Positions 29,004 through 55,864 of a DNA stretch of 64,000 bases are shown piece after piece. The translations under genes were made by a program, and so were the position numbers. The notes below the pieces were generated by a model. The model was not told the DNA's origin, did not search any database, and was given only the letters and a program-made list of their open reading frames with translations. Source of the stretch: an uncultured virus (IMG/VR IMGVR_UViG_3300044294_000547) (Duplodnaviria > Heunggongvirae > Uroviricota > Caudoviricetes); the IMG/VR virus record IMGVR_UViG_3300044294_000547; one strand, given 5' to 3'. Numbering within the stretch: the stretch's first letter is position 1; the number at the start of each line of letters is the position of its first letter.

Positions 29004-29530
29004 CAGAGAAGACCCTCCAATTCATCTAATTTTTTCTTCATATCGGACGCGTCCTTAGATTTGCCTTTTTGAGGTTCCATATTGGTGGAAAGATTAGACG
29101 CCATTCGTGAAACAACTTTTTCATGTATAGCTATAAGGTTTTCGGCTTGCGGCTCAGATATTGATTCTACAACATCAATCTTTTCAACCCGAGATGAAAC
29201 ATGAACAACTTGAGGGGCAGGCATGGAAGATAACATATTTTTTAGCTCTGCTAATGATTCTGCTATGGCAGATATGGCCTTGCCGTCATTTTCTTCTCTG
29301 ACTATTTTTCTCAATACGTCCATGTCTATGGTATTCTGGCGCCCACGGCTAGAATCTTTTGCCACCACTCTCAGATACCCGGCGACCACGGCTTTCTTGA
29401 CTGAAGGACTTGCCTCGACAATTCTCCTGTCAGCAACAATGTCAAGATCTATAGACTGACTTGGAGACAAAATGACCTTTAGGTCTCCAAGCGACAAATG
29501 CTGCCTAGTTGTATTTACTACCAAAAACAT
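29003..29530 (-). CDS. Hypothetical protein coupled to the actin gene (putative adaptor)
   Basis: Start MFLVVN via TGATG overlap; N-terminal recurrent module, coiled-coil-like middle, C-terminal amphipathic KKKLDELEGLL. Confidence 0.7.
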   Translation of the reverse strand: MFLVVNTTRQHLSLGDLKVILSPSQSIDLDIVADRRIVEASPSVKKAVVAGYLRVVAKDSSRGRQNTIDMDVLRKIVREENDGKAISAIAESLAELKNMLSSMPAPQVVHVSSRVEKIDVVESISEPQAENLIAIHEKVVSRMASNLSTNMEPQKGKSKDASDMKKKLDELEGLL

Positions 29531-29745
29531 CAGCCCTGCAATCTGGTTCGCGGTAAAGGTTTGAAATTTTTTGATGGATCTACAATCATCGTCGAACTCT
29601 TTTTGCACGATGGACAAACCATGTGAATCGTGCCCTGTGAGAAGTTGATCTCCACGTTGCCACGAGCCGCCGTACTAGAGAAACACGCAGGACACACCAC
29701 CCTGAACTCCTCAGACTCATGGACCACCTCCTCTGGTTTAGGCAA
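29530..29745 (-). CDS. Small zinc-ribbon protein
   Basis: CPAC and CPSC pairs; overlaps its neighbours at both ends. Confidence 0.7.
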   Translation of the reverse strand: MPKPEEVVHESEEFRVVCPACFSSTAARGNVEINFSQGTIHMVCPSCKKSSTMIVDPSKNFKPLPRTRLQG

Positions 29746-31996
29746 GGAACAAACTCCTTGCCAATTTTAACATGCAACCCCTTACATCTTCGTGATTGCA
29801 TTCTGCCTCTTTGACTAAGAACTCTTCATCTATAAATGCCATTCGGTCTCGAGCTCGATTTGCACTGCCTAGACCAGATAGCCGCCAAGCCTTGCTGTCT
29901 GGCTCTTCCCCAATGAAATTTATCAGTGCGACAGTTTCTGCATCACTAATGAAATGCGGTCTTAAGCTAAAAGCCAAGCTAGCAATCACTCTTGCAGCAT
30001 CTCGGCTATCATTGTTTCTGCTAGTCGCCTTATTGAATGCTTCCACAAGAGCATTATCTAACTTATTCTGCTCTTGAGGATCAGCATTTGTCAACGATTC
30101 TCGCCATGCCTCAATACTGAATGCATTAACAACCTGCTGCAGTTTTTCGTATATCAAATTATAGGCATTCGGCCCACTTTTTGGAATGCGCTCAACGGTT
30201 CTGTTCGTGTTGTCTTTCAACAACTGCGCCATACACTCAGCCATTTCTTTACTGCTGATGGCATCTTTGATCTGCTGCACCTTCTCCTCAAAAGGAAGAC
30301 TAGAAATTCTTGGAGCCAATTCGTGCACCAGTAATTGTTTGCAACGACGCTTAGCCTGTTCTTTTTTGGAAGGAGTTTTCGGTCGACTCTGCTGAAGACT
30401 GTGAAGGTCAGATTTGTCGTAATTATCAGGTGCGAATTTCATCCAATCTCTCGGAGGATCAGCCCTATTTACCCTAACAATGGCATTCAAAACCTTAATG
30501 CCCCCATTAACATCACCACTTTGTGTGGTGATTACAATTTGACCGTGATTGTGGTTGACATACGCTGTCTTCTTTTTGTCAAACAGCGACTTTAGCATGG
30601 TCAGTGCAGGAATTGAATAGCCACGATTAGCAACATTCATAAGCGTATCAAACCTTCCGATGAGCCTGTCACGTGCTATCTTTGCATCTCCGAGAGACTC
30701 CTTAAAAATATTTTTCATAGGATTTACGGCCGCCTGCCTATCCTTCATCTGTTCAGCACCAATCGTATCAACGGAAAGTCTATCAAGTATGCCCTTCAAA
30801 GAGCTAATATGGGTGTCAAGTTTGATGGCGAGTTGATTTTTAAATTCTTCAAGAATTTTGATAGCTTTATCGTTGTATTCAGAAAGAGGCTGACGCTCAA
30901 GATTTTGAATTTCACTCTGAATGTAGACATCAAGATCTCTATCTCCGCCTTGCCTGTCCGCGATCATGTCAAGACCTCGCTGCTCATTTGCGTCTACTCC
31001 CATTGCAAGAGTAGAGTCGTACTCATCCCGCTCGAATCGATTGACTCCAATTTCACTCCGACGCTTGTCAATCACATATGCGAACATATGTGCAACCACA
31101 TCTTCGTCGCCACCCTGCAGGAGATTTACAAGCCTGCATAGAAGCGTGATGCCAACAACATCAAAACTAGTTGATATTCCTTGCATCTGATCAATAGTTT
31201 TATTAGATATTGCATGAACATTTTTCTTTTTAGAACGATTTAATTCATCTTGGACACGCCGAGGCATCTTTTCACGATGCCCATCAAAAAAACTATATAC
31301 AAAGTTTCCCTTAGATCTATGAAAATCAGAAACATCTATGACTGCTCTCCCTCTTTCAATATCATTTAAATATTCAAGATATTGAGGATCTGATCTTCTT
31401 TTAAACCAGTCAGTTCCCAAGCCATTCCTAACACATACTGCACGAGCAGCGCTTTGATGGTTGGCAAGAGCTTGCCTGCCGAATTCTGGCAAATCGCCTT
31501 TAGATACCACATCATTCAGATGTGCGATGATGCTTTGCAGGTCATCTTGTCCTTCAGGAAATGTTGAACATGGAGACTCGTCGTGATTTACATTCGGCAC
31601 CTCTCTCATGTGCCTTAAGGGCGCGGCTCCGCCCCGAATAGGTTGGGAACCACGATCACCCTGTATGGACACCTCGGGGGTCTGCAACAACTCTTTTAAA
31701 CATGTAAGATTGTCAGTTAAAACATCTCGTGCCGCTTCGAGAACATGTTCCTGATTCTCGAGACCATGAATTCTTTCAAAAGCATCCTCAATCAGGCTAT
31801 TCAACTCCTGACTCCGAACATCAACATGCTTAGTATGATCATCGGAAGCCCGCTGCATGGCGTCGACCACTTCAGTCAGGTATTTGTACAATTTATCGTT
31901 GCGATTCTTGATCAAATTAAGCTTCTGGGTCACCGATTCGCAAGCACCAAATGCGGTTTTTTGCAATTTCTGTGAAAACATGATATACTTTTCCAT
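29738..31996 (-). CDS. Large helical hypothetical protein (~750 aa)
   Basis: Long ORF; start at 31996 or 31981; N-terminal coiled coil preceded by LQKTA, C-terminal LVKEA. Confidence 0.75.
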   Translation of the reverse strand: MEKYIMFSQKLQKTAFGACESVTQKLNLIKNRNDKLYKYLTEVVDAMQRASDDHTKHVDVRSQELNSLIEDAFERIHGLENQEHVLEAARDVLTDNLTCLKELLQTPEVSIQGDRGSQPIRGGAAPLRHMREVPNVNHDESPCSTFPEGQDDLQSIIAHLNDVVSKGDLPEFGRQALANHQSAARAVCVRNGLGTDWFKRRSDPQYLEYLNDIERGRAVIDVSDFHRSKGNFVYSFFDGHREKMPRRVQDELNRSKKKNVHAISNKTIDQMQGISTSFDVVGITLLCRLVNLLQGGDEDVVAHMFAYVIDKRRSEIGVNRFERDEYDSTLAMGVDANEQRGLDMIADRQGGDRDLDVYIQSEIQNLERQPLSEYNDKAIKILEEFKNQLAIKLDTHISSLKGILDRLSVDTIGAEQMKDRQAAVNPMKNIFKESLGDAKIARDRLIGRFDTLMNVANRGYSIPALTMLKSLFDKKKTAYVNHNHGQIVITTQSGDVNGGIKVLNAIVRVNRADPPRDWMKFAPDNYDKSDLHSLQQSRPKTPSKKEQAKRRCKQLLVHELAPRISSLPFEEKVQQIKDAISSKEMAECMAQLLKDNTNRTVERIPKSGPNAYNLIYEKLQQVVNAFSIEAWRESLTNADPQEQNKLDNALVEAFNKATSRNNDSRDAARVIASLAFSLRPHFISDAETVALINFIGEEPDSKAWRLSGLGSANRARDRMAFIDEEFLVKEAECNHEDVRGCMLKLARSLFLA

Positions 31997-32031
31997 AAAT
32001 AGTATTTCTGACTTGTTGCGACCTATCCTTG

Positions 32032-32077
32032 TGCGGAGGTGTGGGGCAGAAAACGAACCCCGCCCCACACCGCCGCA
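32032..32077 (-). terminator. Strong GC-rich hairpin downstream of phoH
   Basis: TGCGG.GGTGTGGGGC...GCCCCACACC.CCGCA stem starting ~6 nt after the phoH stop; no U-tract follows on the minus strand. Confidence 0.55.
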
Positions 32078-32083
32078 GTGATG

Positions 32084-32773
32084 TCAGTTTTTTTCCTTGT
32101 ATTTGAGGTCTATCTTAGAAACAAGACCATGTCGCTGGCAAGATTCTGGGGGGAATTGGAAACGACTAATCCCATCCACGCTCTTGAGCCTTCTAAGAGC
32201 ATCTGTCAAGCCATTCCTAGACGACCTGCAATCTAGATCGCACTGGAATTCGTCACCTGCGACAACTGCTTTAGATGATTTACCAAGCCTAGTGAGGAAA
32301 AGGTGCATCTGCTCAGGAGTGCTGTTTTGCGCCTCGTCCATGATCATGAAAGTGTTTTCAAAAGTGACGCCACGCATGAAGGCAAGAGGGAGTATTTGAA
32401 TTTCATCAGATGCCATCATTCTGCTAGCCGTGCTCTTCCCAAGAATTTTCTCCATAATCATCCTGATTGGAGCAACAAAAGGATCGAACTTTTGCTCAAG
32501 AGATCCAGGAAGGTATCCTAGTCTTTCGCCAGCGCTCACGTAAGGACGTGTAAGAATAATTTTGCTTATTCGTTTTTCACTCAACATCCGCAAAGCCATG
32601 CCAGTGGCAATTGTTGTTTTTCCTGTACCCGCCATTCCATATAACATGGTCACTGCGCTGTCCTCAATTATTTTCACAGCTTGCCTCTGATGTTCATCAA
32701 GTGGCTTGAATGCTATATGGGACCCAGGACGACTGCTCTCAATCAACTGCTTGCGCTTGGACTTGTTGCTCAT
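32084..32773 (-). CDS. phoH: PhoH-family ATPase
   Basis: GMAGTGKT, IILTRP, LGYLPGSLEQK, LAFMRGVTF, DEAQN, LTRLG, GD..QCD, RHGLV. Confidence 0.95.
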   Translation of the reverse strand: MSNKSKRKQLIESSRPGSHIAFKPLDEHQRQAVKIIEDSAVTMLYGMAGTGKTTIATGMALRMLSEKRISKIILTRPYVSAGERLGYLPGSLEQKFDPFVAPIRMIMEKILGKSTASRMMASDEIQILPLAFMRGVTFENTFMIMDEAQNSTPEQMHLFLTRLGKSSKAVVAGDEFQCDLDCRSSRNGLTDALRRLKSVDGISRFQFPPESCQRHGLVSKIDLKYKEKN

Positions 32774-35259: not shown

Positions 35260-36021
35260 TTATATTTCCATCATTTTATTGACTATGCCTCTTGAATCCA
35301 TATCGGAACTAGCAGCAATAATATTTGCAGCAACACCAGCAACAAAAGCATTGGCAAAACTAGAGCCTATAGAATCCATAAATCTGTCTCCAACGGTCAT
35401 GGTATCATATGTCCAATTAGGCATGGTTATCTTGATCCCGTCAGCAGATGGGGATTTAACTTCGCCTACTGCGACTGAAATAACTCCAGAAGCCGAAGAC
35501 GGGAAGGCATAAGAACGCGTATCAGAAACCGCAGAAAATATCAATATTTCTTTTGCAAGCAATTTTTTAATCACTTCTGAAGCGAGATGCTCTTCTTCAG
35601 AAGATGTTAGGCTGCAAACCACAATATCGCACCTTGAAGCCATGCACCACAAAAGTCCTCCGACAAGAGCAGATATATCTCCCGACCTGTCAGACTTTGC
35701 ACACTTGGCGTGAAAGAAAGTGGCTTCATGACAAAGACCAGGAATACCTGAGGCATGAGATGAAGATAAAATGCCCGATACAGAAGTGCCGTGACCATCT
35801 CGGTCATATGGCTCTTCGCCATTAACCATACTAACCTGCCTACTCTGATTGTTTAACTTGATATCTCTATGTGTGGGAGCACCCGTGTCTACTATTCCGA
35901 TTTTGAGACCTGAACAGTCAGTTCTTTCCACCCTAAATCCTCCATGTGCTGGCAGCACAACCTGTCTGACTCTAGGTGATATCCTAAGTCTTCCATCTGG
36001 AGGGGAATCACCCAACACCAT
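35260..36021 (-). CDS. Subtilisin-like (S8) serine peptidase
   Basis: GIVDTG (Asp), DGHGTSVSGIL (His), GSSFANAFVAGVAA (Ser); GAGGAG SD before the ATG at 36021. Confidence 0.85.
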   Translation of the reverse strand: MVLGDSPPDGRLRISPRVRQVVLPAHGGFRVERTDCSGLKIGIVDTGAPTHRDIKLNNQSRQVSMVNGEEPYDRDGHGTSVSGILSSSHASGIPGLCHEATFFHAKCAKSDRSGDISALVGGLLWCMASRCDIVVCSLTSSEEEHLASEVIKKLLAKEILIFSAVSDTRSYAFPSSASGVISVAVGEVKSPSADGIKITMPNWTYDTMTVGDRFMDSIGSSFANAFVAGVAANIIAASSDMDSRGIVNKMMEI

Positions 36022-36733
36022 CGGACACAATCTCCTCTTCAACCATTTCTACAAAACTAAAAACAGGGCTACAAGATCTTGAAGACCTGAGCAGAAGGGC
36101 TCTTCCACCACCCGAAGCACAGCCCCATGCACACACAGGATCATCTGTAACCAAAGCAGAGACGGTTCTGCTCTCTTCAATTCTCTTCACTAAACTCTTG
36201 CGAACAGGCACATGCCAAAGTCTGCCTGTCTCAAAAAATTTTGACTTTACAGCCATGCGAAGGGAGTCATTGGAGATTGAAACACCCTGCCTGTCATGCA
36301 TTTTTGTAGAAAACTTGGTGTGGAAACTTGGCAGGACAACATCATCAATATGAAATGCCTTAGACAAAGAATACAGAATAGGTTGCCCCTCAAGATATGC
36401 AGAAAGTATATGAGAAAACCTTGCCTCTGTTGCCACTATAGATGCACCATCAAGAACCAAGCCATAGGCGCCAAGACTTAACGCATGACGACAGTCAACC
36501 ACGGAGTCAGAAACGCACACAATCTCATCAAACTGATCCCTAGAAATAGTGTGCAGATGAGCAAAATATGGCTTACCGGGAAGAATTTTTTGAAGTCCGT
36601 CCTCCCATCCAGCTGAGGATGAAATTGTGAATTCACACTGTCCACCATAGATGCGCTTCATGATTTGAAGCAATGAAGAAGTTACAAGTATCCCCCATTC
36701 AGATGGAGATGGAATCAGGCATATTTTTTTCAT
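36008..36733 (-). CDS. Possible divergent GT9-like (heptosyltransferase-type) glycosyltransferase
   Basis: N-terminal KKICLI...GILVTSSLLQIMKRIY, FDEIVCV, and C-terminal IEESRTVSALVTDD weakly match the GT9 layout. Confidence 0.35.
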   Translation of the reverse strand: MKKICLIPSPSEWGILVTSSLLQIMKRIYGGQCEFTISSSAGWEDGLQKILPGKPYFAHLHTISRDQFDEIVCVSDSVVDCRHALSLGAYGLVLDGASIVATEARFSHILSAYLEGQPILYSLSKAFHIDDVVLPSFHTKFSTKMHDRQGVSISNDSLRMAVKSKFFETGRLWHVPVRKSLVKRIEESRTVSALVTDDPVCAWGCASGGGRALLLRSSRSCSPVFSFVEMVEEEIVSDGVG

Positions 36734-36734: not shown

Positions 36735-37322
36735 TCATAGCCTTATTTCGGCTGCGTTTCTGATCCCGCTAGGTAAAATATCATCATCTGTTCCTGTGTC
36801 AACATCATCTTTCCTTCGTATGGAGCCTCGAGATTTCCTACTTGCTTTTTGAGCCTCTTTCTTGAGTTTTAATTGCTCACTGTGCGCCTGACGCATAACT
36901 GACAATTCTTGCCCAGACAACCTAACGAGATGACCCGAAGATATCAGAGACAGAATCTGAGCAGGAATATCACCATATTCTTTTTTGATGAATGATGCAG
37001 ATTTTCCGTCTATTTTGCCATCAAACTTTAAAGGAGGCTGCAACTTGCTCAATATCAAACATCCATCTTTGGCAGGAGCTATAAAGTCTTTTTCTTGCGA
37101 CACCTGAGTATCAAGAGAGACAACTCTAGAAATAGCAGGATTAGACTGCGGGACAGATACGGTTCCAAGAACTAACTCTTTGAGAGTAATCAGGCCGCCA
37201 TCAACTACGGCAGGCACGTTCATCAACTCTGGATGAACCATTACCCTATCGATTGGGAGAGAATAGACTTTTTCTCCCATAAACACAACCCTGCCAAAAT
37301 CTCTGTCGTAAAATGCTTTCAT
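36735..37322 (-). CDS. Hypothetical protein
   Basis: Start MKAFYD via ATGA overlap; basic then acidic C-terminus. Confidence 0.7.
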   Translation of the reverse strand: MKAFYDRDFGRVVFMGEKVYSLPIDRVMVHPELMNVPAVVDGGLITLKELVLGTVSVPQSNPAISRVVSLDTQVSQEKDFIAPAKDGCLILSKLQPPLKFDGKIDGKSASFIKKEYGDIPAQILSLISSGHLVRLSGQELSVMRQAHSEQLKLKKEAQKASRKSRGSIRRKDDVDTGTDDDILPSGIRNAAEIRL

Positions 37323-38665
37323 AATTTTGTTACCAAGCCTTTGAATTGCGAAACAACGGCGTCCGCAGAGCACATGTCAGCCAATTTTGACGCTGCTCTT
37401 GAAGCCATCAAGTTTCTCTTTTTAGGGGATGTAGACCAACATATTCTCATGGACGCACCAAGTCTTTGAATAAATTCTACACTCACCGTATCCGCCATGA
37501 CGGTGCCATCCCATAAAATTGTACCAGTTGTACCATTTTTAATAGTTGTCCTGTCAACATCGACCAAAAATGCTGAAGAATCATCAAGGAAATCAAGTTG
37601 ACCACCAAACCTTGGAGCAACTGAAGGTATCCCGCACATGGCTGCTTCTGCATACGGAAGACAAAATCCTTCTCCCCTTGCAGCTAGAACGCATGCATCT
37701 ACAGACCTGTACAACTTGGCAAGATCTGCTTCAGTAATGTTTTTAGACATTCTGACCACGAGTGGAGGATGCTTTTTGCCACAACTTGACACCAAATCAG
37801 AAACCACATCTGCGAATTTTTTTTGAGCTTCTTCTCCGCGCTTGTCTCTATGCGCCACGATGAGACATACATCATCTGATGGATCAAATTCCTTAAGAAA
37901 TGACTCAATTACATTGGTGCCAACCTTTCTAGAGCTAATTCCAAATATAGTTAAAAACTTGAAACTTGGCAATGGAGATGAGAATTGATATTCTGCTCCT
38001 TTTGCACAAAAAATGTCATTATTAATGTGTGGACTCAAAACTCCCGCGTCAATATCATACTTCCCAAAAGTGTCACAGCAGAATCTACTTACACACCAAA
38101 CCATTTCATATTTCTTTGCAGAAGCTGCAACAGCAACAGGCAGAGTTTCTGACTCGATAGTAGTGTAGAGCACCCTCATGCCAGATGGACCTGGAGAGCC
38201 AAATGTGGGTACCACACTATTTATATCAAGCATGCCTTGGCATCTTGGCCTTATGGGCAGTCCGCATCTTGCATCTTCGTACAAAAGCTGTGGTTTCCCA
38301 AGGTCTACTGGGTCAACACTTACTGAAATGTTTTTTGTAGTAAGTGCTTTGACCAAACCTCTATTGACCTTTCCATATCCTGAATAGTCTAAAAACTGGC
38401 CTCTGATTACGACATCATCAAGCATGGCATCACCAGATGGCTTCTTTGCTTTCGCTGACATTTTTGCCAATGCTGCCTGTATCCCATCGGCTTGGTCATG
38501 ATCCAACACAACCACATAACCCTTTGCAACAGCCGAACGAAGAGATGGCGCTGATCTAACACGATCTGATGATATCTCAAATTTATCACCACTATCACCA
38601 GCAGGGATGCGATCATCCCATTCGGGAACATATACAGGTATGCCAAGGACATTTCTTACTATCAT
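37319..38665 (-). CDS. GT-B glycosyltransferase (GT4-like) with an extra N-terminal domain
   Basis: DYSGYGKVNR, YTTIESETLP, RKVG, ARGEGFCLPYAEAAMCGIP, GGQLDFL; ~80-aa N-terminal extension. Confidence 0.9.
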   Translation of the reverse strand: MIVRNVLGIPVYVPEWDDRIPAGDSGDKFEISSDRVRSAPSLRSAVAKGYVVVLDHDQADGIQAALAKMSAKAKKPSGDAMLDDVVIRGQFLDYSGYGKVNRGLVKALTTKNISVSVDPVDLGKPQLLYEDARCGLPIRPRCQGMLDINSVVPTFGSPGPSGMRVLYTTIESETLPVAVAASAKKYEMVWCVSRFCCDTFGKYDIDAGVLSPHINNDIFCAKGAEYQFSSPLPSFKFLTIFGISSRKVGTNVIESFLKEFDPSDDVCLIVAHRDKRGEEAQKKFADVVSDLVSSCGKKHPPLVVRMSKNITEADLAKLYRSVDACVLAARGEGFCLPYAEAAMCGIPSVAPRFGGQLDFLDDSSAFLVDVDRTTIKNGTTGTILWDGTVMADTVSVEFIQRLGASMRICWSTSPKKRNLMASRAASKLADMCSADAVVSQFKGLVTKL

Positions 38666-39436: not shown

Positions 39437-40306
39437 TCAGGTGGTGGTGGGATCCACGGTGATGACGGACACGGCATAGTCGTTCATGACCACGATGCCG
39501 ACCTCCTCATAGATCACCCAGCCAAGACGCAGCTTCTTTGGATCATCGGCGGGAAGGACAGTGATGTCCTGGCGGATGGGGAATGCGCCAACGGTGTCTG
39601 GGCTAGCAGTGACGATAATCTTGGTGTCATCGAGCTGGCTTGACACATGGATGTCAGCCGTCCACAGGTGACCGTAAAGACCAGTGGTGAGGATCTCACG
39701 GGTGGTGGCCTCATCATAGAAGTCCTTTCCAAAGCTGCGGACTGCTGAGTAAGACTCAGGATGCATGACCACCTTTGAGGCCACCAGATCGTGGGTCTCA
39801 ATATACTTGTAGGCAGTGTTCAAAGACGCAGTCTCCAAAGTGCCCACATTGGTGATCTCCTGAGCTGCTGGAGCAGCAGCAATCAGAGCGTTGAAGATGT
39901 TGCGATCCTCTTCCTTCTGGATTGCCTCCTTTGCCTTGATCTGTGCACGGTCAACGATGTAGAAGCGACGTGCTTTGATCTCGGACAGACGGATGGTGGG
40001 GTGTGCTGCAATCTCGAAGGTGGGGACAAGAACTTCCTCTCCCTCGGTGATCTGATCAGGCACTGCACCCTGACGGGCAACGATTGTGGCCACGGAGGCA
40101 ACATCGCGCTCGTAGCGGGGAAGAGCGCCTTGGGGGAGCTCGTCCACCATCAGGAGCTTGCGACCGACGGCCTGGTACTCCAGGGAACGCCGAATCGGCT
40201 CCACCATCGCTTGAGCAAGGGCAACACGCCCCTCCTCGGTCGACAAGGCCTGTGCAATCACGGCCTCTTTCTCGTCGTAAGTCAAACCATCTTTGTTGAT
40301 GCTCAT
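39437..40306 (-). CDS. Major capsid protein (HK97 fold)
   Basis: Start MSINKDG with AAAGGA SD; LAQAMVEPIRRSLEYQAVGRKLLMVDELPQG, VPTFEIAAHPTI, AIQKEEDRNIF, GWVIYEEVG; strong codon bias; follows the protease and decoration genes. Confidence 0.9.
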   Translation of the reverse strand: MSINKDGLTYDEKEAVIAQALSTEEGRVALAQAMVEPIRRSLEYQAVGRKLLMVDELPQGALPRYERDVASVATIVARQGAVPDQITEGEEVLVPTFEIAAHPTIRLSEIKARRFYIVDRAQIKAKEAIQKEEDRNIFNALIAAAPAAQEITNVGTLETASLNTAYKYIETHDLVASKVVMHPESYSAVRSFGKDFYDEATTREILTTGLYGHLWTADIHVSSQLDDTKIIVTASPDTVGAFPIRQDITVLPADDPKKLRLGWVIYEEVGIVVMNDYAVSVITVDPTTT

Positions 40307-40321
40307 TGTGTTTTTCCTTTC

Positions 40322-40362
40322 TCCGACACCCCCTGATTCACGCATCAGGGTGGTAGGTCGGA
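40322..40362 (-). promoter_or_regulatory. Stem-loop just upstream of the capsid RBS
   Basis: TCCGAC..ACC.CCCTGAT-loop-ATCAGGG-GGT-GTCGGA ending immediately before AAAGGA. Confidence 0.6.
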
Positions 40363-44000: not shown

Positions 44001-46721
44001 CTCAACGATCCCATTAGCTTCATCAAAATCTATTGACATCGGAACAATATCAACACCAGGGAAACGGTCGGATATCATCCCTTGGGCAAACTTGGTGACC
44101 TCTGCTATGAAGTTGATGCGGTCTGCAGGATCTGAAGAAATGTCCTCGCCAACGGTGCAGCAGACCTTATACATACCATCTTCAGGACGGAATGCCTGAC
44201 GCACAGCGTCCTCAAACGAAGCTTCTTTGGCCATAACTTCAGTAGCATCAGAAGCCATCTTTATGGCCTGCTCAACAGCCAAATCGTTGCTAGCGCAGTG
44301 AACAAATGCCCGAATCGCATCTTCGGCGGAAACATTTTTTGCATTATCTGCGATGGAGGCCAAAACGAGGTCGATTGGCTCAGCCATGAGACCTGCGGAA
44401 GCTCCCTTGGTCATCTCGGAGTTTCTTTCGGCAACTTCACGACGCTGAGACACAGTCCAAGGGGCTGCATTTATGGAAACCATGAATGCAGCCTTGGCAG
44501 ATCTTGATGGCTTGCCCGATATGTACTGCGCGACCTTTGAGATGTCAAAAGGATCCAAACCGTATATCGCTATGCCATCGGCAAGCGCACGAGTTGCGAT
44601 CTTAACAAGATCAACTGCGCTTGCCTTCTTAGACATCGATCCGAGTTGAGCCTCTGTGGTTGCGGTTGGCTCGATCCACTTATGATCTTTGCGGAGCATA
44701 TCGAGCTGGGCAGACTGCACATGGTCTGTCCACTCTGCTGGTATCTTGGCAAAAATCTCGCGGGCTGCATCCTCCCACTGACCCTCTGTGATGGTTTCTG
44801 GGAAAGAATTCCAGCGGGCCATGAATCCGTTGGATCCGCTAGCAAGCTGCATCTCTGTGGTGCCATCAGGCGATCCAGACCTCACCTGCGGTGATGCACT
44901 AGAGACATCTGCGAACGCAGGCTTTGATGCGCCAAGACGACTATCTGACTCGATGATCTCAGTGTATTCCGCACCAGTGCGTGCGCCTATGCCTTTGCCA
45001 TCAACAAATTGCCCTTCAGTGGTGGTCGGGGGAGAGTTGTCGGTGCGATTTGAAGCTGTTTTAACGGTGCGGTTGTTGGTATTCAATTCAGGCTCCTTAC
45101 TAGAGTTAATGTTTTCTTGTGTTTCGAGGGATGCGAGAATGATGCGAGCTGCGCCTTCGGGATCTTCGGCAATTGCTCTCCTCAAGTTATGAGGAAATGC
45201 ATCTGCAGATGATGCTCTGACGACACGCCCGTCAACCACTTCTGTTACGAATGATTCGCCGTCAGAGTCGGCGGATATCACAACAGAGCAGTTGGCTGAT
45301 GCAATTTTTGCAATGATTTGATTCTGTGCCAAAAGATCCTCCGAAGGAAAGTGCTCGCCATCCTCCACGCGGATGGCAAGTCCTTTGCCTCTATTATTAT
45401 TTTTTTTCCAAACTTCCTCCCCAAAAGCTGCTCTTGGAATAAAAGTTGGTTTAGTAACCCTACCTATGTCATCACCCACATCTTGGAGAGACGGAGTTCC
45501 CAAAGAAATCGGCCTTGTGGGGGATTGCTGAGGCACAGACATGGGGGCGACTGCAGTGGGCGCCATTGAAGATGGCGTGGTTTGTGATATTTTTCCACCA
45601 TCGACGGGTGATGCGGGGGCAGATGTGCCTTTAGCCATTTGTTCAGAAGATGGAGATGGCAGTTGTGCATAGCCCATTTCTATAAGTTCGTCTGTGGTTT
45701 TTTGCACATTAGACATGACCTTTACAAGATCGCTGACATACTCCATAGAAACTGCCTGTTTTTGTGCCATCATGGACCTAGCAACACGTTCAAGCAGATT
45801 CATTGCCTCATTCAATTCCCCAATCTCTTGTCGACCAGCCACCTTTTCCATTCCACAAACCCCGTCCTTGCAGAATGTTTCCTCTGCCACCTTGCTGAAA
45901 CCCTCATTTACGGCTCTAACTTTCTCAACAAGGCTAGCAATCTTTTTGCGAACACCTTCTGGATTCAATATTTCATGAACTAGACAATCGTGACATGCTG
46001 GGTTGACCACAAAACTGTCTTCTATAAATTTGACTCCGAAATTATGTTCAAAAATCTGTTGATCTTTGTGGATGTGAACTTTCTTTTCATCCTTTTTGCA
46101 TCCGCAAACTGGACAGGGTTCTTCACTAGCGTTAGGAGATTCATGATACTTGCAGAGATGTTCGCCATTGAATCGCTTCTTCTTACGTTCTTTGATGTGT
46201 GAGCAAAATTCTTTTGCTGTCGCGGCTCTGTGATGGCATATACTGCAGCATGAATACTGCACCTGACAACCCATCGATGTGCCATTCACATATCCCTGTT
46301 CTATTCCTCTAGCAAGCCTAGGAAAAGCAACGCGATCAACCATATTGATGGTATATATGCCGCCTGCGGCATCGTCGTACCATGCATGGACAACCTTGCC
46401 CCTTGCCTTCTCAATATCGTCATTTTGGTGGTTGACAAAAACTGGAACCCCGATGAATGTTTTGGCAGCATGTTTCAGTTCAGTCTCGCTAAACCAGTCA
46501 CCATTGTCATTAACCTCATCCTTCTTTATAGCAAATACTTTGACAAATAGATGATCAGGGTGCTCCTTAACGGCTGCAGTTATGTCGAATCCATTCAGAT
46601 CAACACCAACCTTAGCCGCCTGCTTCTGCAATACATTAGTGTTGAATTCCTCCCAATCCTCAGGTACATTAAGAGCAGTAACCTGCCTGACTCCGGAAAT
46701 GGCAAACTTGTTGGGAATCAT
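41007..46721 (-). CDS. Prohead maturation protease / scaffold polyprotein
   Basis: N-terminal NDNGDWF, GVPVFVNH (His), GTSMGC (Ser), SFVVNPA; then Cys clusters, Pro/Gly linkers and an acidic repeat; between portal and capsid genes. Confidence 0.85.
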   Translation of the reverse strand: MIPNKFAISGVRQVTALNVPEDWEEFNTNVLQKQAAKVGVDLNGFDITAAVKEHPDHLFVKVFAIKKDEVNDNGDWFSETELKHAAKTFIGVPVFVNHQNDDIEKARGKVVHAWYDDAAGGIYTINMVDRVAFPRLARGIEQGYVNGTSMGCQVQYSCCSICHHRAATAKEFCSHIKERKKKRFNGEHLCKYHESPNASEEPCPVCGCKKDEKKVHIHKDQQIFEHNFGVKFIEDSFVVNPACHDCLVHEILNPEGVRKKIASLVEKVRAVNEGFSKVAEETFCKDGVCGMEKVAGRQEIGELNEAMNLLERVARSMMAQKQAVSMEYVSDLVKVMSNVQKTTDELIEMGYAQLPSPSSEQMAKGTSAPASPVDGGKISQTTPSSMAPTAVAPMSVPQQSPTRPISLGTPSLQDVGDDIGRVTKPTFIPRAAFGEEVWKKNNNRGKGLAIRVEDGEHFPSEDLLAQNQIIAKIASANCSVVISADSDGESFVTEVVDGRVVRASSADAFPHNLRRAIAEDPEGAARIILASLETQENINSSKEPELNTNNRTVKTASNRTDNSPPTTTEGQFVDGKGIGARTGAEYTEIIESDSRLGASKPAFADVSSASPQVRSGSPDGTTEMQLASGSNGFMARWNSFPETITEGQWEDAAREIFAKIPAEWTDHVQSAQLDMLRKDHKWIEPTATTEAQLGSMSKKASAVDLVKIATRALADGIAIYGLDPFDISKVAQYISGKPSRSAKAAFMVSINAAPWTVSQRREVAERNSEMTKGASAGLMAEPIDLVLASIADNAKNVSAEDAIRAFVHCASNDLAVEQAIKMASDATEVMAKEASFEDAVRQAFRPEDGMYKVCCTVGEDISSDPADRINFIAEVTKFAQGMISDRFPGVDIVPMSIDFDEANGIVEAVVKEASMLTPEEEDAYHKFTSDEENMKNKSLKTNVATTSVDSFDSREERISRRAKLLEEIERLEKKAQVGGAMPSALNPAGMGASAAVPGAMPPGIPGAEALTGAPPAPAAPAGMPAAPAPAPQDPLGLDAGYDQPGKAKPPAAVCVVCGNQDVDVSGGKSQCKGPGCGSGFTIKVIPDASLLDKITDGDVDQDDVSGDNPAEPDKGLGGIGAEMPPGMPPAGAPGLPPVAASTRLTPETLRKIASKGPLGSVSPITGNRNTVKLDNETWMCLDSGQMYKVRLAASATSPKDAYAQWEWVPEFKKASCSSCARKRASINYALTSVGIDRAKFDSMSVVKKAEVLNKALSMGAVKHVKIASKEDTAIGSFKKAFTMHGEFPMNECMEKLARRYGADSVALSGPCRGNTLPDCVCSKLASANIYSTTVADKVASSWAQPDPMCECVEDLVREGMGIKQASSACEMIKAAYAEDEEYLAEDLTEEDGETESHGDDEMEESDPFDGEDGFENDNQKTVSISLDVTPDVLEQIEEQIQKALAKAHGEDDVDMDTEVDMEPEMSDDFDMDGSEDTEDTEDTEDTEDTEDTEDTEDTEDTEDTEDTEDTEDTEDTEDTEDMDAEEPAEVSHMVGAEGRDYSDGEKEEKEAVMKKTAPNEASSKSDKSYEIEKEAMALRRGRVVGVGKLELDISRLASALTKEAGEKAVEIGHAQKQPELGTVMTGKAGLKSLKVVENGGKPLSSEHGDGFDADMPKVPVDGPSFKGDKIKGEKGNMATGGVQGSGKSASSKLDNRKAAFSDSLAKLASELGLKTELVQNQADLGDVGTSEGLEGMEELEVPEGNESAGLSLPSIPVGGQNGAEKQNLMTGGQVGSGKSGPVGGYAKKKAGEDSSELALKVAGKMVAAGMISADNLPAKAKELMGYKVAQLMDLEKAMFAEGVVAKGLKTASAGSETAFVIPEQKSERNAYGDLKSKIASMFRLQQQVELADQTESNVLRRVFK
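42158..42300. repeat. 9-bp tandem repeat (~16 copies) encoding (EDT)n
   Basis: (GTGTCTTCA)n with two TTCG variants, in frame in the scaffold. Confidence 0.97.
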
Positions 46722-47131
46722 GCCTTCAATGTTCTCGGAATTTTCACATCGAACAAATGGTTCAATGTGTAGTTGAATTGATTCTTAGGATATGGTATTC
46801 TGTATTTTTCTGAAAGAAAAGACAGAGCAGAATATATATTGCTAAAATATTTGCCATACGGACTGTATACTTTCGACTCAAATTTTTGCCAATCGAATGG
46901 CAATTTTTTGATGCCTGCGAAAAATGACTTCTTGAGATCTCTAGTTCTTGCTGGCGAGCAGACAACATAATAATCTGAGTTGGTGGTATAGTCGTGTCCC
47001 TCCCACCTATGGTACGCCCCAGGACCAATATCCCTCTCGTATCTCTTCTTGAGAGGCTCCGTGCGCTGCGTGTATGCCTCTTCCCAAGTGATGTTGCGGT
47101 CACGTATCCTGCGTGCTGAAATCTTCAGCAT
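46718..47131 (-). CDS. Hypothetical basic protein
   Basis: Likely start MLKISAR; ATGA-coupled to the protease gene. Confidence 0.7.
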   Translation of the reverse strand: MLKISARRIRDRNITWEEAYTQRTEPLKKRYERDIGPGAYHRWEGHDYTTNSDYYVVCSPARTRDLKKSFFAGIKKLPFDWQKFESKVYSPYGKYFSNIYSALSFLSEKYRIPYPKNQFNYTLNHLFDVKIPRTLKA

Positions 47132-49310
47132 GGGATTCACCTGCTGGCAAGAAAATTTCTGCCACATCTGTGGAAATGACACGGGGCTCTCCATTATATA
47201 AAGATGCAGCAGTTTTGCTCAAAATCCTCCGCTCTTCTATCGCTTCTCTTATATTTGACATGACAACTTGAGAAACTTCATCCGCTCGACTGTTGAGAGC
47301 GTTCTCTTTTATCCTTATAACCCTCCACCCGAGTTGCGCGAGCTTAATGTCCCTTGCTCGGTCACGCTCGATGGCTTCTGGGTCTGAATGCCACATTTCT
47401 CCATCTGCTTCCAAATCGACCCCTATTTGGGGATATGCAAAATCTAGAAGGAAAGGTTGTCTCTGACCGGGCATGTACTGCTTAAATTGTGCAAAAAGTG
47501 GATAAGGAACCGCAAGTTGGTTGAGAATAGATGCCAATTTCTGCTCAGGCTTTGTCAAAAATATCTGCGTGGGTTGTGAATGCTTAGGCATATCTTTTGT
47601 CTTGTAACCCTTGCCCTTTTTGAATATCTTTCCAGGCAAAACAGATGCGACTGACGCCATAGGCGGAACTCCAAAGTCGCCACCAGGAGCAGGGGCTGCG
47701 GGCGGAACGCCACCAGGAGGAGAAATCCCCAAATCCATTGGCGGTGCTCCTGACCCAATGGGCGCAGGAGCGGATGGCATGCCTCCGCCCATGCCTCCCA
47801 ACCCTCCAAGATCTCCAATTCCTCCCCCGCCAATGCCACCAGAGCCGCCACCTGAAGTGGCACCAAGAACTTGGCCTCCAGCACCAGCCATAACCTGTTC
47901 TTCCCTCATGCGTGAAATCTCAACGTCGAAGTCTATGTCAAACATATCAAGTAACTTTTGTCTGCTGATAACCGTCTTGTCATACAACTGCAGGATCTTG
48001 TTCAAATATTCAGAGTTGTCACGTAGGCGAAGATCGTTCCACTTTATTTTTGGATACAACCACACGGTTTCATTCAACTGCTTCGACTTTGCCGTATCAA
48101 CAAAACCCTGCATTTGAGCAACAGGCAAGAATATGTTTCTCTCGGCCCAATGCGCCAATTCCATTCGCCAAGTTTCAAGTCTTCTGATGAGAGTCTCCAC
48201 GCCGACAGCAGCACCAGAATAAGCCTGCATCTCTCCGTTGAGCAAGGTTTGATTGAGCATCAAACCGTCAAGCATCTCCTTGCCAATATATTCCATCTGA
48301 TTGCTTATGTCATGGATTTTCCCAGTTGCACCCTCCCAAGTCATCTCGAATGCGTTGTGAGTAACAATGGTCAAATTTGGATCATTTGCGACTGCAGCTA
48401 GTTGAGCCTGCACATCTGCAATATCCGTCTCATTTGCAGGGCGCTCGGCAGTTCCCACCTTAACTATTCTTATTGGCAATATATGGCGCTCTGCCACGAT
48501 CCAGTTCGCTGTCATCAACTTGGTTTTGTATGCAATCGTCATGAAGAGTCGACGCAGCAATGACTCTCCATAAGTTCCATAAGGACTCCCCTTGTGTCGC
48601 AAATGACTCACGCAGCGCGGACTGAGAGGTATGGCCTGCCCAGCAGCAACAAGATCACGAATCTGCGGAGATATCTTGTCATAGACATCCTTCGGCTTCT
48701 TCTGCTGAACCACTCTACGCAAATCATCATCTGGCAGCATGGCAATTGTTGGGTGGTCAGCAAGTTGCGTGTTTTGAACCTCAACGAAATCTGGATTGAG
48801 AATCATCAGTCTTTTGAATGTTCCACCAGGATGATTGCACACCCTTCCATCGGGAAGTGTTGCTTTGCCTCCACACACTGGGCAGTCTATTTCCAAAAAC
48901 ACAAAAACATCACCAAGTAAAAAATATTCGTGTGATATCTTTCTGAACCAGTAATCAAGGTTGAGTTTTTCGATCATGTGCTCAAAATAGTTTAAGACCT
49001 TTCGATCTCTGCATTCTAATTTGAATCCATTCATAGGAAATGTTGCATAAAAATCTATGCCACCAGCAGCCTTAGGCTCGTTTTCATAATAAAAACGTGC
49101 CCACTGGTAAACTTCTTTACGCCTGCTTGCAATCTGCCAACTCTGTGGCGTATGCAGGGGAGAGAAAAACATCGGTTGGGTGAATATGGTGGATACATTC
49201 CCGCCCACATACTGAGCCGCTTTGGTCAGCGGCAACGGAACTATTGTTCCGTTTGCATACATCTTGTTGTCCGCAACGAATTCACTACTTGTTTTTTTCT
49301 TGTTTGCCAT
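47100..49310 (-). CDS. Portal protein with C-terminal Vsr/DUF559-like endonuclease domain
   Basis: Portal-like WARFYYENEP, EYFLLGDVF, LNPDFVEV, YGESLLRR, PKIKWNDL; then a Gly/Pro linker and TKPEQKL..LDFAYP..LEADGEMWH..RDRARDIKLAQLGWRVIRI. Confidence 0.85.
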   Translation of the reverse strand: MANKKKTSSEFVADNKMYANGTIVPLPLTKAAQYVGGNVSTIFTQPMFFSPLHTPQSWQIASRRKEVYQWARFYYENEPKAAGGIDFYATFPMNGFKLECRDRKVLNYFEHMIEKLNLDYWFRKISHEYFLLGDVFVFLEIDCPVCGGKATLPDGRVCNHPGGTFKRLMILNPDFVEVQNTQLADHPTIAMLPDDDLRRVVQQKKPKDVYDKISPQIRDLVAAGQAIPLSPRCVSHLRHKGSPYGTYGESLLRRLFMTIAYKTKLMTANWIVAERHILPIRIVKVGTAERPANETDIADVQAQLAAVANDPNLTIVTHNAFEMTWEGATGKIHDISNQMEYIGKEMLDGLMLNQTLLNGEMQAYSGAAVGVETLIRRLETWRMELAHWAERNIFLPVAQMQGFVDTAKSKQLNETVWLYPKIKWNDLRLRDNSEYLNKILQLYDKTVISRQKLLDMFDIDFDVEISRMREEQVMAGAGGQVLGATSGGGSGGIGGGGIGDLGGLGGMGGGMPSAPAPIGSGAPPMDLGISPPGGVPPAAPAPGGDFGVPPMASVASVLPGKIFKKGKGYKTKDMPKHSQPTQIFLTKPEQKLASILNQLAVPYPLFAQFKQYMPGQRQPFLLDFAYPQIGVDLEADGEMWHSDPEAIERDRARDIKLAQLGWRVIRIKENALNSRADEVSQVVMSNIREAIEERRILSKTAASLYNGEPRVISTDVAEIFLPAGESHAEDFSTQDT

Positions 49311-53052: not shown

Positions 53053-53056
53053 GACT

Positions 53057-53899
53057 TTAGGTAACTACAAATTTACGAGTAAATGTCCTGCTTGGGAAAG
53101 AAAATCTAACGATTCTATTCAACAAATAATTTCTCGGCTCGCCAACGGTAGTGTCCCACGAAACAACCACCTGCCTGCGACTGGCTTGAGAAAAATGCAT
53201 ATCATGTGGTTCAATCTCTCTTGAAATCATTTTGCCACCCTCTGTCAAGTATTCCACAAGCATTGACTGTCTGTTTACTACAGACCACCTGACTGCATCG
53301 CCAACTCCTGAAAAATTGGGAATTGGAATAGACGTAGAAATCGCAGAATCTGCTCCAGATCTAGCTGGATCTGTGGTTATTTCGACCCTATCTACGGGAA
53401 CCTTGTCTGCCTGAGGCGGCGGGATTGAGGCAGCGATCTCCCCTTCAAAAGGCTGGAAAACCTTTTCTGGATCTACGATTTCGGGCTTCAAAGATGTTAG
53501 GGGCATTTTTTGGGCAATCTTATAACTTCTACTAAATATGCAACAGGGCGGATTTTCCTCTCTGCTGAGATAACACTCATCTCCAACCCTAAAACCATTT
53601 TTGGAAAGCCAGCCATCAGGCAGTTCAACAGCCAAGTTGCATGGCTCAGAGGCCGCAACAGATGTCAAGTCGTGGGGCTTTATCCTGCCAACCGTCACAA
53701 TTTTACCTGAAGGATTTACAAAGACCACGTCCAATGGCAAAAATGTATTCATGCCCCAAAAACTATGTCGATCTGGTCGGTCAAACACAAAAGCCATACC
53801 ATGACCGTCTTCCAATTCATGTCTGAACATCAAACCCCTCTCTCTCAGGTGTGGTTTGTCTGCCAACTCAACCACAACTCTAGAAAACGGGCTATGCAT
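53057..53899 (-). CDS. DUF192-WYL domain fusion protein
   Basis: DUF192: VELAD..RERGLMFR..GMAFVF..FWGMNTFLPLDVVFV..AVELPDG. WYL-like: LVEYLTEGGKMISREIEPH..SWD..EPRNYLLNRI. Start MHSP at 53899. Confidence 0.8.
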   Translation of the reverse strand: MHSPFSRVVVELADKPHLRERGLMFRHELEDGHGMAFVFDRPDRHSFWGMNTFLPLDVVFVNPSGKIVTVGRIKPHDLTSVAASEPCNLAVELPDGWLSKNGFRVGDECYLSREENPPCCIFSRSYKIAQKMPLTSLKPEIVDPEKVFQPFEGEIAASIPPPQADKVPVDRVEITTDPARSGADSAISTSIPIPNFSGVGDAVRWSVVNRQSMLVEYLTEGGKMISREIEPHDMHFSQASRRQVVVSWDTTVGEPRNYLLNRIVRFSFPSRTFTRKFVVT

Positions 53900-54110
53900 A
53901 TTCGGAGACAAAGAAGCCCCCACGAACAAGTCGATCAGCGAAGTCCTCGCACTCATTTTCATCATCAAATTCGAGACGATATCCAGATCCATGACGAAAA
54001 ACATCGGCTCCGGCACCGCGAGCCTGCCTAACCGCTTTATCCAAGTTCCAAGCACGCTCAAAAGATCCTGAGAGTCTAGATGGTCTGTCTTTCAGTATTA
54101 AAATTCTCAT
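53892..54110 (-). CDS. Small hypothetical protein (72 aa)
   Basis: ATGA overlap upstream and 8-nt overlap downstream. Confidence 0.6.
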   Translation of the reverse strand: MRILILKDRPSRLSGSFERAWNLDKAVRQARGAGADVFRHGSGYRLEFDDENECEDFADRLVRGGFFVSEYA

Positions 54111-54454: not shown

Positions 54455-55206
54455 CCCAAATGCCTCCACAGGTATTCCCTGTACTTGTACGGACTTTCAT
54501 TTTTCGCGTTATCTATAAGATATGGCTCTGTTGCCAACTCTCTCCAATAAAACCCAGGTCTGAAACGAGGTTCATTGTATGCTTCAGTCCAAGAGCGATA
54601 TCTGTATTGACTCTTGCGAGCGGTCGAATCACCCTCAATGCTCTCCTCTATATCCCTCCATGGAATCACGCGATCACCCATAGGAAGATCTAGACGACCG
54701 TATGGACCATCCATAACAGAAGCAGTTTTTTGGGGGGATGAAGCACCGAACAACCCGTGCTTATATGAAAGGCGTGCAATCATGTACTCATGAAGAGATA
54801 TTTTGGAAAGCAGCGCAGATATTTCTGAACAAGTAGGAGTTGGCAGTTTTGCCACATCGAATGAAGCCATAAAGTTTATTATAATTTCATGCTTCATCTG
54901 ATCATTTAGCCGATCCTTGGCTGACATGGTGCACAACCCTTCAAGAGCACACACAGCCATTCTTGAACCAACTACAGAGCATGAACCCGCAGAGGGAATA
55001 GATTCAAGAATGCTGCAAAGTGCTGTCCACAGGTCTTCAAGCACAAGAGCCAATTCATCGGCCCTTTTGGAGAGTGCTGATGGGTAATCTGAAGCAAGAA
55101 CCTGAATCTGAATCTGTGGATCAAAAACAACATCAACGCCAATCTCAACGCCGAGTCGTGCGAGTTCGATCTTAGCCTGATCAGGACTTATCTTTGGAGT
55201 TGCCAT
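54451..55206 (-). CDS. Hypothetical head-region protein
   Basis: AGGAG SD; QKTAS followed by an aromatic-rich C-terminus. Confidence 0.75.
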   Translation of the reverse strand: MATPKISPDQAKIELARLGVEIGVDVVFDPQIQIQVLASDYPSALSKRADELALVLEDLWTALCSILESIPSAGSCSVVGSRMAVCALEGLCTMSAKDRLNDQMKHEIIINFMASFDVAKLPTPTCSEISALLSKISLHEYMIARLSYKHGLFGASSPQKTASVMDGPYGRLDLPMGDRVIPWRDIEESIEGDSTARKSQYRYRSWTEAYNEPRFRPGFYWRELATEPYLIDNAKNESPYKYREYLWRHLG

Positions 55207-55342
55207 CGCACTTTGCTCCTACCAAAGAACTAGAATAATCCTTGTCGTAGATAAGGGTGAAATAACGGCACAAATTCTTGTGGTTTTTTATTCGCAGATT
55301 CTTCAGCACACGAGTTAATTTGTCCGTTGCGATTCTGACCAT
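55181..55342 (-). CDS. Small unlisted ORF (53 aa)
   Basis: ATG directly after the upstream TGA: MVRIATDKLTRVLKNLRIKNHKNLCRYFTLIYDKDYSSSLVGAKCDGNSKDKS. Confidence 0.5.
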   Translation of the reverse strand: MVRIATDKLTRVLKNLRIKNHKNLCRYFTLIYDKDYSSSLVGAKCDGNSKDKS

Positions 55343-55864
55343 TCAACCTATCTCCGTGTTCATCATCCCAAAAATGGAATCATCAACAATTGCTGCTTTA
55401 GATTTTTTAGTTCGGAACGATTTACGTGTAACCTTCTTTTCGGATTGTGGTTGTTTGTCTTTATTTACACACTCATGCTCGCTAGCAGCATCGGAAGAAA
55501 CCGAAGCCAAGGGAGAGGAGCATGACAGATATCCGACACTCACTAGTTTCATAGCAGTCTCCATATTTGGATCAGACTTTTTCAGTATGAAACGCTGGTT
55601 GGGGGCCAATGTTCTCTTCAAAAAAGCGACCATGATACCACCCCCCTTAACATTCAAAAACTCTATTTCATCCTCGGATGTCTTGCTAGACACCCCCTCA
55701 TCCGCAGAATCAAATGATATGTAGCCTTTCTTCTTAGCCCACAACACATCCTCGTGAGATGCCAATTCGTCTGGCAAATCAACAACAACACCAGGCTTGA
55801 ACTTCTTTTTTATCGAAGATAAAATCAATTCACCCTTTAGTGTTTTAGAAACTATTACTTTCAT
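55343..55864 (-). CDS. Protein with two copies of a ~50-aa recurrent module
   Basis: AGGAGGAG SD; repeats end in AKKKGYISF and LVSVGYLSC. Confidence 0.75.
   Translation of the reverse strand: MKVIVSKTLKGELILSSIKKKFKPGVVVDLPDELASHEDVLWAKKKGYISFDSADEGVSSKTSEDEIEFLNVKGGGIMVAFLKRTLAPNQRFILKKSDPNMETAMKLVSVGYLSCSSPLASVSSDAASEHECVNKDKQPQSEKKVTRKSFRTKKSKAAIVDDSIFGMMNTEIG

Follow-up and report, generated by a model that had tools for sequence, protein, structure and literature searches.

A small N-terminal domain of the partner of volactin-type actins in Planctomycetota and very large phages, probably shared with two further phage proteins

In an uncultured tailed virus (Caudoviricetes; IMG/VR record IMGVR_UViG_3300044294_000547), a stretch of about 50 residues seems to return in proteins that are otherwise unrelated, one of which is encoded directly beside an actin-like protein. 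The question that this locus raises is thus whether these stretches are copies of a single domain and, if so, where such a domain might send the proteins that carry it. We analysed 64,000 nucleotides (the window), bases 54421-118420 of the 164-kb virus record. An earlier note, made by eye, had pointed out five segments (here A, B, C1, C2 and D) in four proteins, among them the actin's partner and a glycosyltransferase, and had proposed a portable docking domain that may address its carriers to one target, such as the capsid surface. All five segments are present where they had been placed. Our analysis indicates that A, B, C1 and C2 are very probably homologous copies of one small domain, and that this module is the N-terminus of a conserved actin partner of one volactin subfamily, which occurs both in Planctomycetota and in one clade of very large phages.

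The four copies, each about 52-57 residues long, lie in the actin partner (A), in a glycosyltransferase (B) and, twice, in a 173-residue protein (C1 and C2 of protein C; Table 1). The module begins at residue 1 in all three carriers, the starts being fixed by homologues: 10 of the 11 homologues of A begin MFLVVN, the other (P0005) having an N-terminal extension, the 447-residue glycosyltransferase homologues of B begin MIV(R/K)N, and protein C begins MKVIV. A TTG at 29617 was considered as the start of gene A and rejected, as the homologue starts favour the ATG at 29530. What follows the module differs from carrier to carrier. The body of protein B belongs to the GT4 glycosyltransferases, with matches to PF13692 (31.8 bits, cut-off 27) and PF00534 (29.6 bits, cut-off 26.4), the same families that its database homologues carry, and in protein C the two modules are followed by a disordered tail rich in K and R and by a conserved C-terminus (...F..MNTE.). 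Related phage records contain the same four copies and no others, in three carrier proteins. The idea of a portable module is thus borne out: the actin partner, the glycosyltransferase and the tandem-module protein C have unrelated architectures and yet open with one and the same domain. In each family, the module is at least as conserved as the remainder of the protein (identity 0.87 against 0.61 in A; 0.69 and 0.66 against 0.31-0.44 for the linkers in C; 0.73 against 0.71 in B). The modules of A, B and C are about 20-30% identical to one another, and a Gly-Tyr ahead of the last strand is nearly invariant.

Taken as single sequences, the segments resemble one another at chance level only: a phmmer search against the 49 window proteins gave mutual matches for A and B alone (E 0.035-0.1), and leave-one-out hidden Markov models (HMMs), run over the 1810 open reading frames (ORFs) of the whole record, recovered no left-out copy significantly. 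The evidence for homology comes instead from family profiles, built from 11 homologues of A, nine of C besides the query and syntenic loci carrying A, B and D. In a first round of hhalign, A and B matched at P 3.8e-5, over 19 C-terminal columns only, and C1 and C2 at P 1.2e-4 over 48 columns, with the cross pairs at 0.009-0.11. Merging A with B and C1 with C2 brought the comparison of the two merged profiles to P 1e-6, with a probability of 91% and 48 columns aligned in register; none of 150 column shuffles reached this score (maximum 13.4 against 32.4) and a reversed profile scored 11.4. The likeness is also specific, as tested against 24 family profiles from window genes (24 of 25 families used): the first choice of merged AB was C (4.3e-4; next 0.15), and the first choices of merged CC were A (5e-4) and then B (0.022), the next being at 0.061. 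The family left out is that of a second glycosyltransferase (5645-6703), whose match to module B was rejected as an artefact of a family alignment filled with B homologues; the enzyme itself starts without the module, and its family was dropped from the counts. After enrichment by an exhaustive HMMER search and inclusion of the Planctomycetota partner family (Pl), which had been found with a profile already containing A, B and C, so that these comparisons are not fully independent, hhalign gave P 1e-14 for A-Pl (53 columns), 3.2e-9 for Pl-B (50 columns), 2.2e-6 for Pl-C1 (47 columns) and 2.1e-7 for C1-C2 (48 columns), followed by A-B (4.5e-6), A-C2 (1.9e-5), A-C1 (1.7e-4), Pl-C2 (4.4e-4) and B-C1 (7.4e-4). 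Profile-profile comparison, which the earlier note had itself named, along with structural comparison, as a test that could refute it, thus reveals significant similarity among A, B, C1 and C2, and none with D.

Segment D, the supposed weaker copy at about 36920-37090, reached significance in none of the comparisons. Its first-round pairs lie at P 0.028-0.18 and all five of its enriched pairs at 0.048-0.29, none significant; over 14 columns, the merged four-family profile matches the D family at P 0.078, and D is not among the matches of the four-family HMM in the 1810 ORFs at E<20. Homology of segment D with the module is not supported by these sequence comparisons, and protein D does not appear to be a carrier in the tests run. 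Of the four proteins originally named, three with four copies between them are retained and the fourth is given up. Proteins D and C do share an arrangement at their ends, a basic stretch with RKS followed by a conserved C-terminal motif (...NA..IRL in D, ...F..MNTE. in C); comparison of full-length C with the D family (P 0.019, probability 2.4%) lends no support to a common tail or module.

How far does the module extend beyond these phages? A tblastn search of 50,697 phage records with A and C gave no match, nor did a scan of viral contigs with alignment A6, and searching longer proteins for the module profile through a word index produced 31 matches, each a member of the A, B or C families. 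When the profile was run exhaustively with HMMER over 1.84 billion representatives, 24 proteins reached E<=0.001, comprising five known representatives of A, B and C, 13 new proteins and six repeat proteins (Rib-domain, DUF4116 and four others); the latter match only 12-22 profile positions, several times each, and were taken as spurious. In the 13 new proteins, the match spans from profile positions 1-8 to 49-52. Ten of these matches begin at residue 1 or 2, two begin at residue 8 or 9, and one begins at residue 15. Three of the proteins are C-like (P0036, P0039 and P0046), with two matched stretches each, a basic tail and a conserved end of their own, while four are A-like (P0041, P0043, P0049 and P0051) and end in ...(D/G)ELE(G/D)LL or a close variant. 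Five belong to a longer kind of 183-384 residues that begins MW(I/V/M)V(K/R/Q)N, four of the five having coiled-coil or Ala/Pro-rich linkers and ending in ...LL(x)(D/E)(I/L), and P0054, with 91 residues, stands isolated. The module is always located at the N-terminus or close to it. Cells have a single copy, on the actin partner, and the phage clade has four, on three proteins; only in phages is it also carried by a GT4 enzyme and, as a tandem pair, by a small basic protein.

The designation of protein A as an actin partner is upheld by conserved gene order and by the actin tree. In the window, the stop of gene A overlaps the actin start by one base, and the actin belongs to the volactin family (PF25216; Table 1). 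A volactin-type actin gene directly follows the module gene in 11 of 11 assessable loci, the twelfth (L021) ending inside the partner gene, and the actins in those 11 loci match the window actin with E values of 2e-56 to 7e-135. With the longer kind as the query, a scan of species genomes yielded 11 loci, which belong without exception to metagenome-assembled genomes (MAGs) titled Planctomycetota, Planctomycetia or Brocadiia; given this choice of query, a restriction of the pair to that phylum does not follow. An A-like gene is carried by a distant viral contig of 28% G+C (L016), in which PhoH is kept upstream of the pair and the head-tail adaptor and tube genes downstream. In Planctomycetota, the neighbouring actins match PF25216 at 234-251 bits. 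Three MAG loci have as neighbours genes for ArgRS (arginyl-tRNA synthetase), ABC transporters, an RNase D-like exonuclease and TPR proteins, with no phage genes; because these neighbours are housekeeping genes, the pair in the MAGs is chromosomal and not part of a prophage. Five Planctomycetota genomes searched whole hold none or one module each. Among 201 sampled genomes of the phylum, 16 have the module, in one copy each, and 14 of these also have a PF25216 match just downstream of it, on its own strand; in the other two, the module sits at a contig end in one, and the genome has no PF25216 match at E<=1e-20 in the other. PF25216 actins as such occur in 78 of the 201 genomes, some with two or three copies. 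Two groups can be told apart, the main one scoring high and lacking the partner, the other scoring lower and having it; several open frames with a PF25216 match are 600-1158 residues long, which suggests fused forms.

An actin tree, unrooted, with long branches and selected rows (9 of the 14 partnered cellular actins, 11 chosen unpartnered ones and four from phages), puts the partnered cellular and phage actins on one side of a branch with 100/100 support and the 11 unpartnered actins on the other. The partnered actins thus appear to form a distinct volactin subfamily, apart from the commoner Planctomycetota volactins. Their partners share a layout of N-terminal module, variable and partly helical linker of about 60-280 residues, and short, conserved acidic-hydrophobic C-terminal tail. 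The tail of A, which ends ...LDELEGLL, is conserved in distant partners, with L187, E188 and L190 invariant in alignment A5 (rows 25-33% identical overall), and the longer partner type has a similar tail, ...ADLLxDI. Just ahead of gene A, in a TGATG overlap with its start, is a small zinc-ribbon-like ORF with two CPxC pairs, which stands at the same place in six of six phage loci (the window, L001, L006, L007, L008 and L016) and in none of three Planctomycetota loci (L019, L026 and L027); from the sequence, the zinc ribbon, the partner and the actin would be one coupled run in the phage.

Models of protein C give some idea of the shape of the module. AlphaFold2 (AF2) predicts two confident domains (predicted local distance difference test, pLDDT, 85-92), residues 1-53 and 65-116. 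In C1 (pLDDT 85-88), strands 2-5, 13-15, 20-22 and 27-29 are followed by helices 32-35 and 38-46 and strand 49-51; in C2 (pLDDT 90-92), strands 66-71, 77-79, 84-86 and 91-95 are followed by helix 101-109 and strand 113-115. The order of elements is alike in the two: after four short strands come a helix, which is split in C1, and one final strand. The module is therefore best described as a small beta-rich domain on the model of C only. Comparisons with known structures were made with several tools. Foldseek gave nothing at E<=0.001 against PDB or BFVD, and VIA-align returned 274 of 48161 chains at Z>=2 and none at Z>=5, with a top Z of 4.4 for GINS B-domains and Z 3.2-4.0 for the ribosomal L9 N-domain, the YqbF N-domain and the lambda gpFI C-domain. 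These rows (Z 3.2-4.4, root-mean-square deviation 1.8-5.3, 40-53 residues aligned) fall in the range that the tool calls common; the gpFI domain (2lsm; Z 3.6, root-mean-square deviation 3.0, 47 aligned) is tied with many unrelated rows. Such small domains are like the module in size and in a rough arrangement of short strands plus one helix; no row stands out among them, and no PDB chain or Pfam family matches the module in sequence. The top ESM Atlas score for C, 0.77, is under the tool's noise level, a PDB sequence search with the module profile gave one chance match (E 0.39), and a Pfam-A scan of 16 module sequences (E<=10) produced none at the gathering score, the sole sub-threshold match being PF22708 (S1/CSD-like; E 0.012, 15 bits against a cut-off of 27) in 2 of the 16. 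By model and sequence, the module has no clear match among known folds and none in Pfam, and would be an undescribed domain.

The genes of the carriers are part of a late block. The 164-kb record has a CheckV completeness of 39%, and related records of 100-130 kb have 22-29%; given these incomplete ratings, the phage genome is probably several hundred kilobases long. Nearly all window genes are on the minus strand, and their order along transcription was assigned with Pfam and PHROGs (Table 1). Genes A, B and C are all inside the head-morphogenesis block, between the terminase and head-tail adaptor genes, and gene B is the first minus-strand gene downstream of the major head protein gene. Further features of this block may be recorded here. 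The 1904-residue protein, encoded between the portal and major head protein genes, matches head-maturation-protease PHROGs over residues 37-185 (phrog_2774, 1e-29; phrog_18299, 3e-14), the remainder being without a match; the portal has a C-terminal DUF559 / MTES_1575 endonuclease-like domain (residues 619-694); and a 334-residue protein among the head genes combines DUF192 (4e-25) with a C-terminal WYL domain (1e-4). Three glycosyltransferase-like genes stand amid the structural genes, one beside the large tail-side genes, one next to the gene for the tail tube and one next to that for the head protein. The one beside the tail tube gene has a weak match only, below the cut-off, and the module is present on protein B alone among the three. 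Virion glycosylation is a possible reading of these three genes from their sequences.

Table 1. Coordinates of the module copies, their carriers and other features of the window, in the order of transcription
Feature	Coordinates	Strand	Remarks
Large terminase (TerL)	57006-58889		phrog_2, 1.5e-25
Gene C, 173 aa	55343-55864	minus	two genes downstream of the TerL gene
Module copy C1	55706-55864	minus	residues 1-53 of the 173-aa protein
Module copy C2	55517-55672	minus	residues 65-116 of the 173-aa protein
334-aa protein	53057-54061	minus	
Portal	47100-49310	minus	Pfam/PHROGs
1904-aa protein, protease-like N-terminus	41007-46721	minus	Pfam/PHROGs
Major head protein	39437-40345		phrog_2522, 2.4e-66
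GT4 glycosyltransferase (protein B), 448 aa	37319-38665	minus	PF13692, PF00534, phrog_2170
Module copy B	38504-38665	minus	residues 1-54 of the glycosyltransferase
Protein D gene	36735-37373	minus	contains segment D
Segment D (supposed weaker copy)	36912-37079	minus	not supported as module
S8 protease	35260-36042		Pfam/PHROGs
PhoH	32084-32773		Pfam/PHROGs
Zinc-ribbon-like small ORF	29530-29745	minus	
Gene A (actin partner), 175 aa	29003-29530	minus	module, helical linker, conserved C-terminal tail
Module copy A	29360-29530	minus	residues 1-57 of the actin partner
C-terminal tail of A	29006-29035	minus	conserved in distant partners
Volactin-family actin-like gene, 390 aa	27831-29003	minus	PF25216, 195.9 bits, cut-off 35
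Head-tail adaptor	27106-27831		Pfam/PHROGs
Glycosyltransferase-like gene	24856-26010	minus	
Tail tube protein	23425-24429		Pfam/PHROGs
Glycosyltransferase-like gene	5645-6703	minus	

What might the module do in these proteins? Starting from the observed homology and gene pairing, we infer binding, its direction and its target. The combined data suggest that the module carriers are sent to the same place as the filament's partner, and our best explanation joins a homologous module, an actin partner acting as a tether, and the recruitment of B and C to actin-organised sites; for this explanation as a whole, we see the scales as standing level. Because it has a conserved head, a variable linker and a short conserved tail, the partner could be a two-ended tether between the filament and something else. 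C-terminal peptides are what bind actin in ParR (on ParM) and in arcadin-2 (on crenactin), and by analogy with these the tail of the partner would be its actin-binding end. This would leave docking or assembly to the module, and proteins bearing it would be brought to where the partner's own module sits. The most likely contact would be the partner-actin assembly itself, through module-module or module-filament contacts, and a capsid-specific site would be less likely, because the module also works in cells without phage; something common to host and phage would be an alternative site. In this manner, the phage would place a glycosyltransferase and a tandem-module protein at actin-organised sites late in infection.

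A number of points speak against this explanation. No binding test succeeded, and the actin-contacting end of the partner is assigned by analogy; prediction of a complex between actin residues 40-390 and A residues 1-175 gave scores of 0.27 and 0.00 against a mark of 0.32 and counts neither way. The only residues conserved across all families (alignment A7) are N6, a Pro, A46, G50 and Y51, which appear structural from the alignment, so that no common binding surface is visible, contrary to what one shared site would lead us to expect. As for homology itself, the B-C2 pair is weak taken alone (P 0.025 in the enriched comparison), and the enriched comparisons are subject to the dependence noted above, the kinship of Pl with A resting separately on gene order, tail and actin tree. 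AF2 gave the module of A a pLDDT of 31-45 and no strands, so that the shared fold which the earlier note had proposed to look for is seen between C1 and C2 and is not confidently extended to A. This unfolded result, together with the chance-level single-sequence searches and leave-one-out HMMs, is what could be expected if there were no shared module at all and the likeness were a chance pattern of hydrophobic strands chosen by eye. We nevertheless find that hardly credible, since a chain of profile matches with P 1e-14 to 2e-6 connects all four copies, shuffled profiles never reach the observed score, the merged profiles are reciprocal first choices among 24, and the 13 new database proteins match the profile over all or almost all of its length, at their N-termini or close to them. 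A chance pattern is thus largely refuted for A, B, C1 and C2, and stands for segment D.

Given a real module, other docking sites have to be weighed. The location of all three carriers between the terminase and head-tail adaptor genes, the glycosyltransferase gene coming first after that of the major head protein, would suit a module that docks on the capsid or another virion surface, with the adaptor coupling capsids to the filament and the glycosyltransferase modifying the capsid, and the weak structural match to the C-terminal domain of lambda gpFI, which binds capsids, points the same way. That match (Z 3.6), however, is inside the tool's stated noise, no cross-family residue pattern indicates one binding site, and the module also heads the cellular volactin partner in Planctomycetota chromosomes, with no phage genes near and no capsid there; a single target such as the capsid surface, as first proposed, is unsupported by any test, is made less likely by these chromosomal homologues, and we consider it improbable. 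A different possibility reverses the polarity of the partner: the module itself would bind the actin filament or monomer, so that A, the glycosyltransferase and the tandem protein decorate the filament, and the partner's tail would bind something else. In cells as in phages, actin is the sole protein known to accompany the module, and the module is the partner's most conserved part; yet ParR and arcadin-2 use a short C-terminal peptide, the partners have just such a conserved tail, and if the modules of A, B and C all bound one site on a conserved actin, a higher identity among them would be expected, which leaves this arrangement unlikely in our view. Lastly, the analogy with ParMRC and the prophage system AlpAC could suggest a nucleic-acid-binding module, by which the partner ties phage or cell DNA to the filament, the glycosyltransferase acts on DNA and C is a DNA-packaging accessory. 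The K/R-rich tail of C, its gene near that of the terminase, the weak L9 N-domain rows and the sub-threshold S1/CSD-like match agree with this. The near-neutral net charge of the module (family means -0.4 to +2.4) and a modelled fold that is not ribbon-helix-helix do not, and 450 bases around the start of A have no iteron-like array (window 29450-29900 of this one phage contains two-copy matches of 8-18 nt only, and nothing like a centromere array), so we regard such a role as quite improbable.

In a broader sense, it is possible, though we would sooner doubt it than assert it, that the phage shares a two-gene actin cytoskeleton with Planctomycetota and uses the tether domain as an address label, set on a glycosyltransferase and on the tandem-module protein so as to build a filament-organised work site for late virion production. 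If this were true, actin systems of prokaryotes and viruses would have in the module their first described example of a shared targeting domain, and the gene pair would define an undescribed cytoskeletal module in Planctomycetota. What is new here is an undescribed conserved partner family for the volactin-type actin subfamily, in cells and phages, which goes beyond a phage-only motif; the literature searched, seen in part and outside subscription journals, contains no description of the module or the partner. Actin-like filaments of bacteria, archaea and viruses are understood mainly through their adaptors, and the parts of the literature available to us name none for volactin, so that a partner with a defined domain layout is a direct handle on a whole actin subfamily in Planctomycetota. 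The position of the pair among the structural genes of a very large phage suggests a part for filaments in the organisation of virion production, a role that has so far been shown for the tubulin PhuZ of nucleus-forming phages (PMC8314001). Furthermore, with the domain present on an adaptor, an enzyme and one more protein, simple co-localisation and pull-down could put the idea to the test.

The pair may be compared with systems already described. That phages use adaptor-actin pairs is known from AlpAC of the Corynebacterium prophage CGP3, in which AlpA binds alpS sites (PMC4446434, PMC5539076). Like ParR of ParMRC and AlpA of AlpAC, partner A is a small protein encoded beside an actin-like ATPase, and its gene adjoins the actin gene as in systems of that type (overlap in the window, 11 of 11 loci, 14 of 16 genomes). 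Its layout is the one expected of a filament adaptor, with a linker between two conserved parts, the N-terminal domain and the C-terminal end, and where ParR has its C-terminal actin-binding peptide the partner has a conserved tail, which by analogy may bind actin. Unlike the ribbon-helix-helix of ParR, the module is modelled as beta-rich (four strands, helix, strand), with no Pfam DNA-binding match, and unlike type II partition systems, this phage has no centromere-like repeats in the stretch beside the start of gene A that was searched (29450-29900). The pair also differs from the ParR and AlpA systems in sitting in the late structural block of a very large phage, and the module in being found on an enzyme and a tandem-module protein as well, with a charge that does not indicate DNA binding. 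In the case of volactin itself, from Haloferax volcanii (PF25216), the paper describing it refers to unknown binding factors (PMC10869688). Phage and Planctomycetota actins both match that family well above the cut-off, the partnered actins and the commoner Planctomycetota volactins being separate groups in the tree. Another precedent for an address at the N-terminus is provided by the capsid targeting sequences and N-terminal propeptides of T4 and phiKZ-like head proteins, short peptides that are removed by the prohead protease. The module resembles these as an N-terminal address on otherwise unrelated proteins of the head block and, unlike them, is predicted to be a folded domain, strongly conserved and present in cellular proteins as well.

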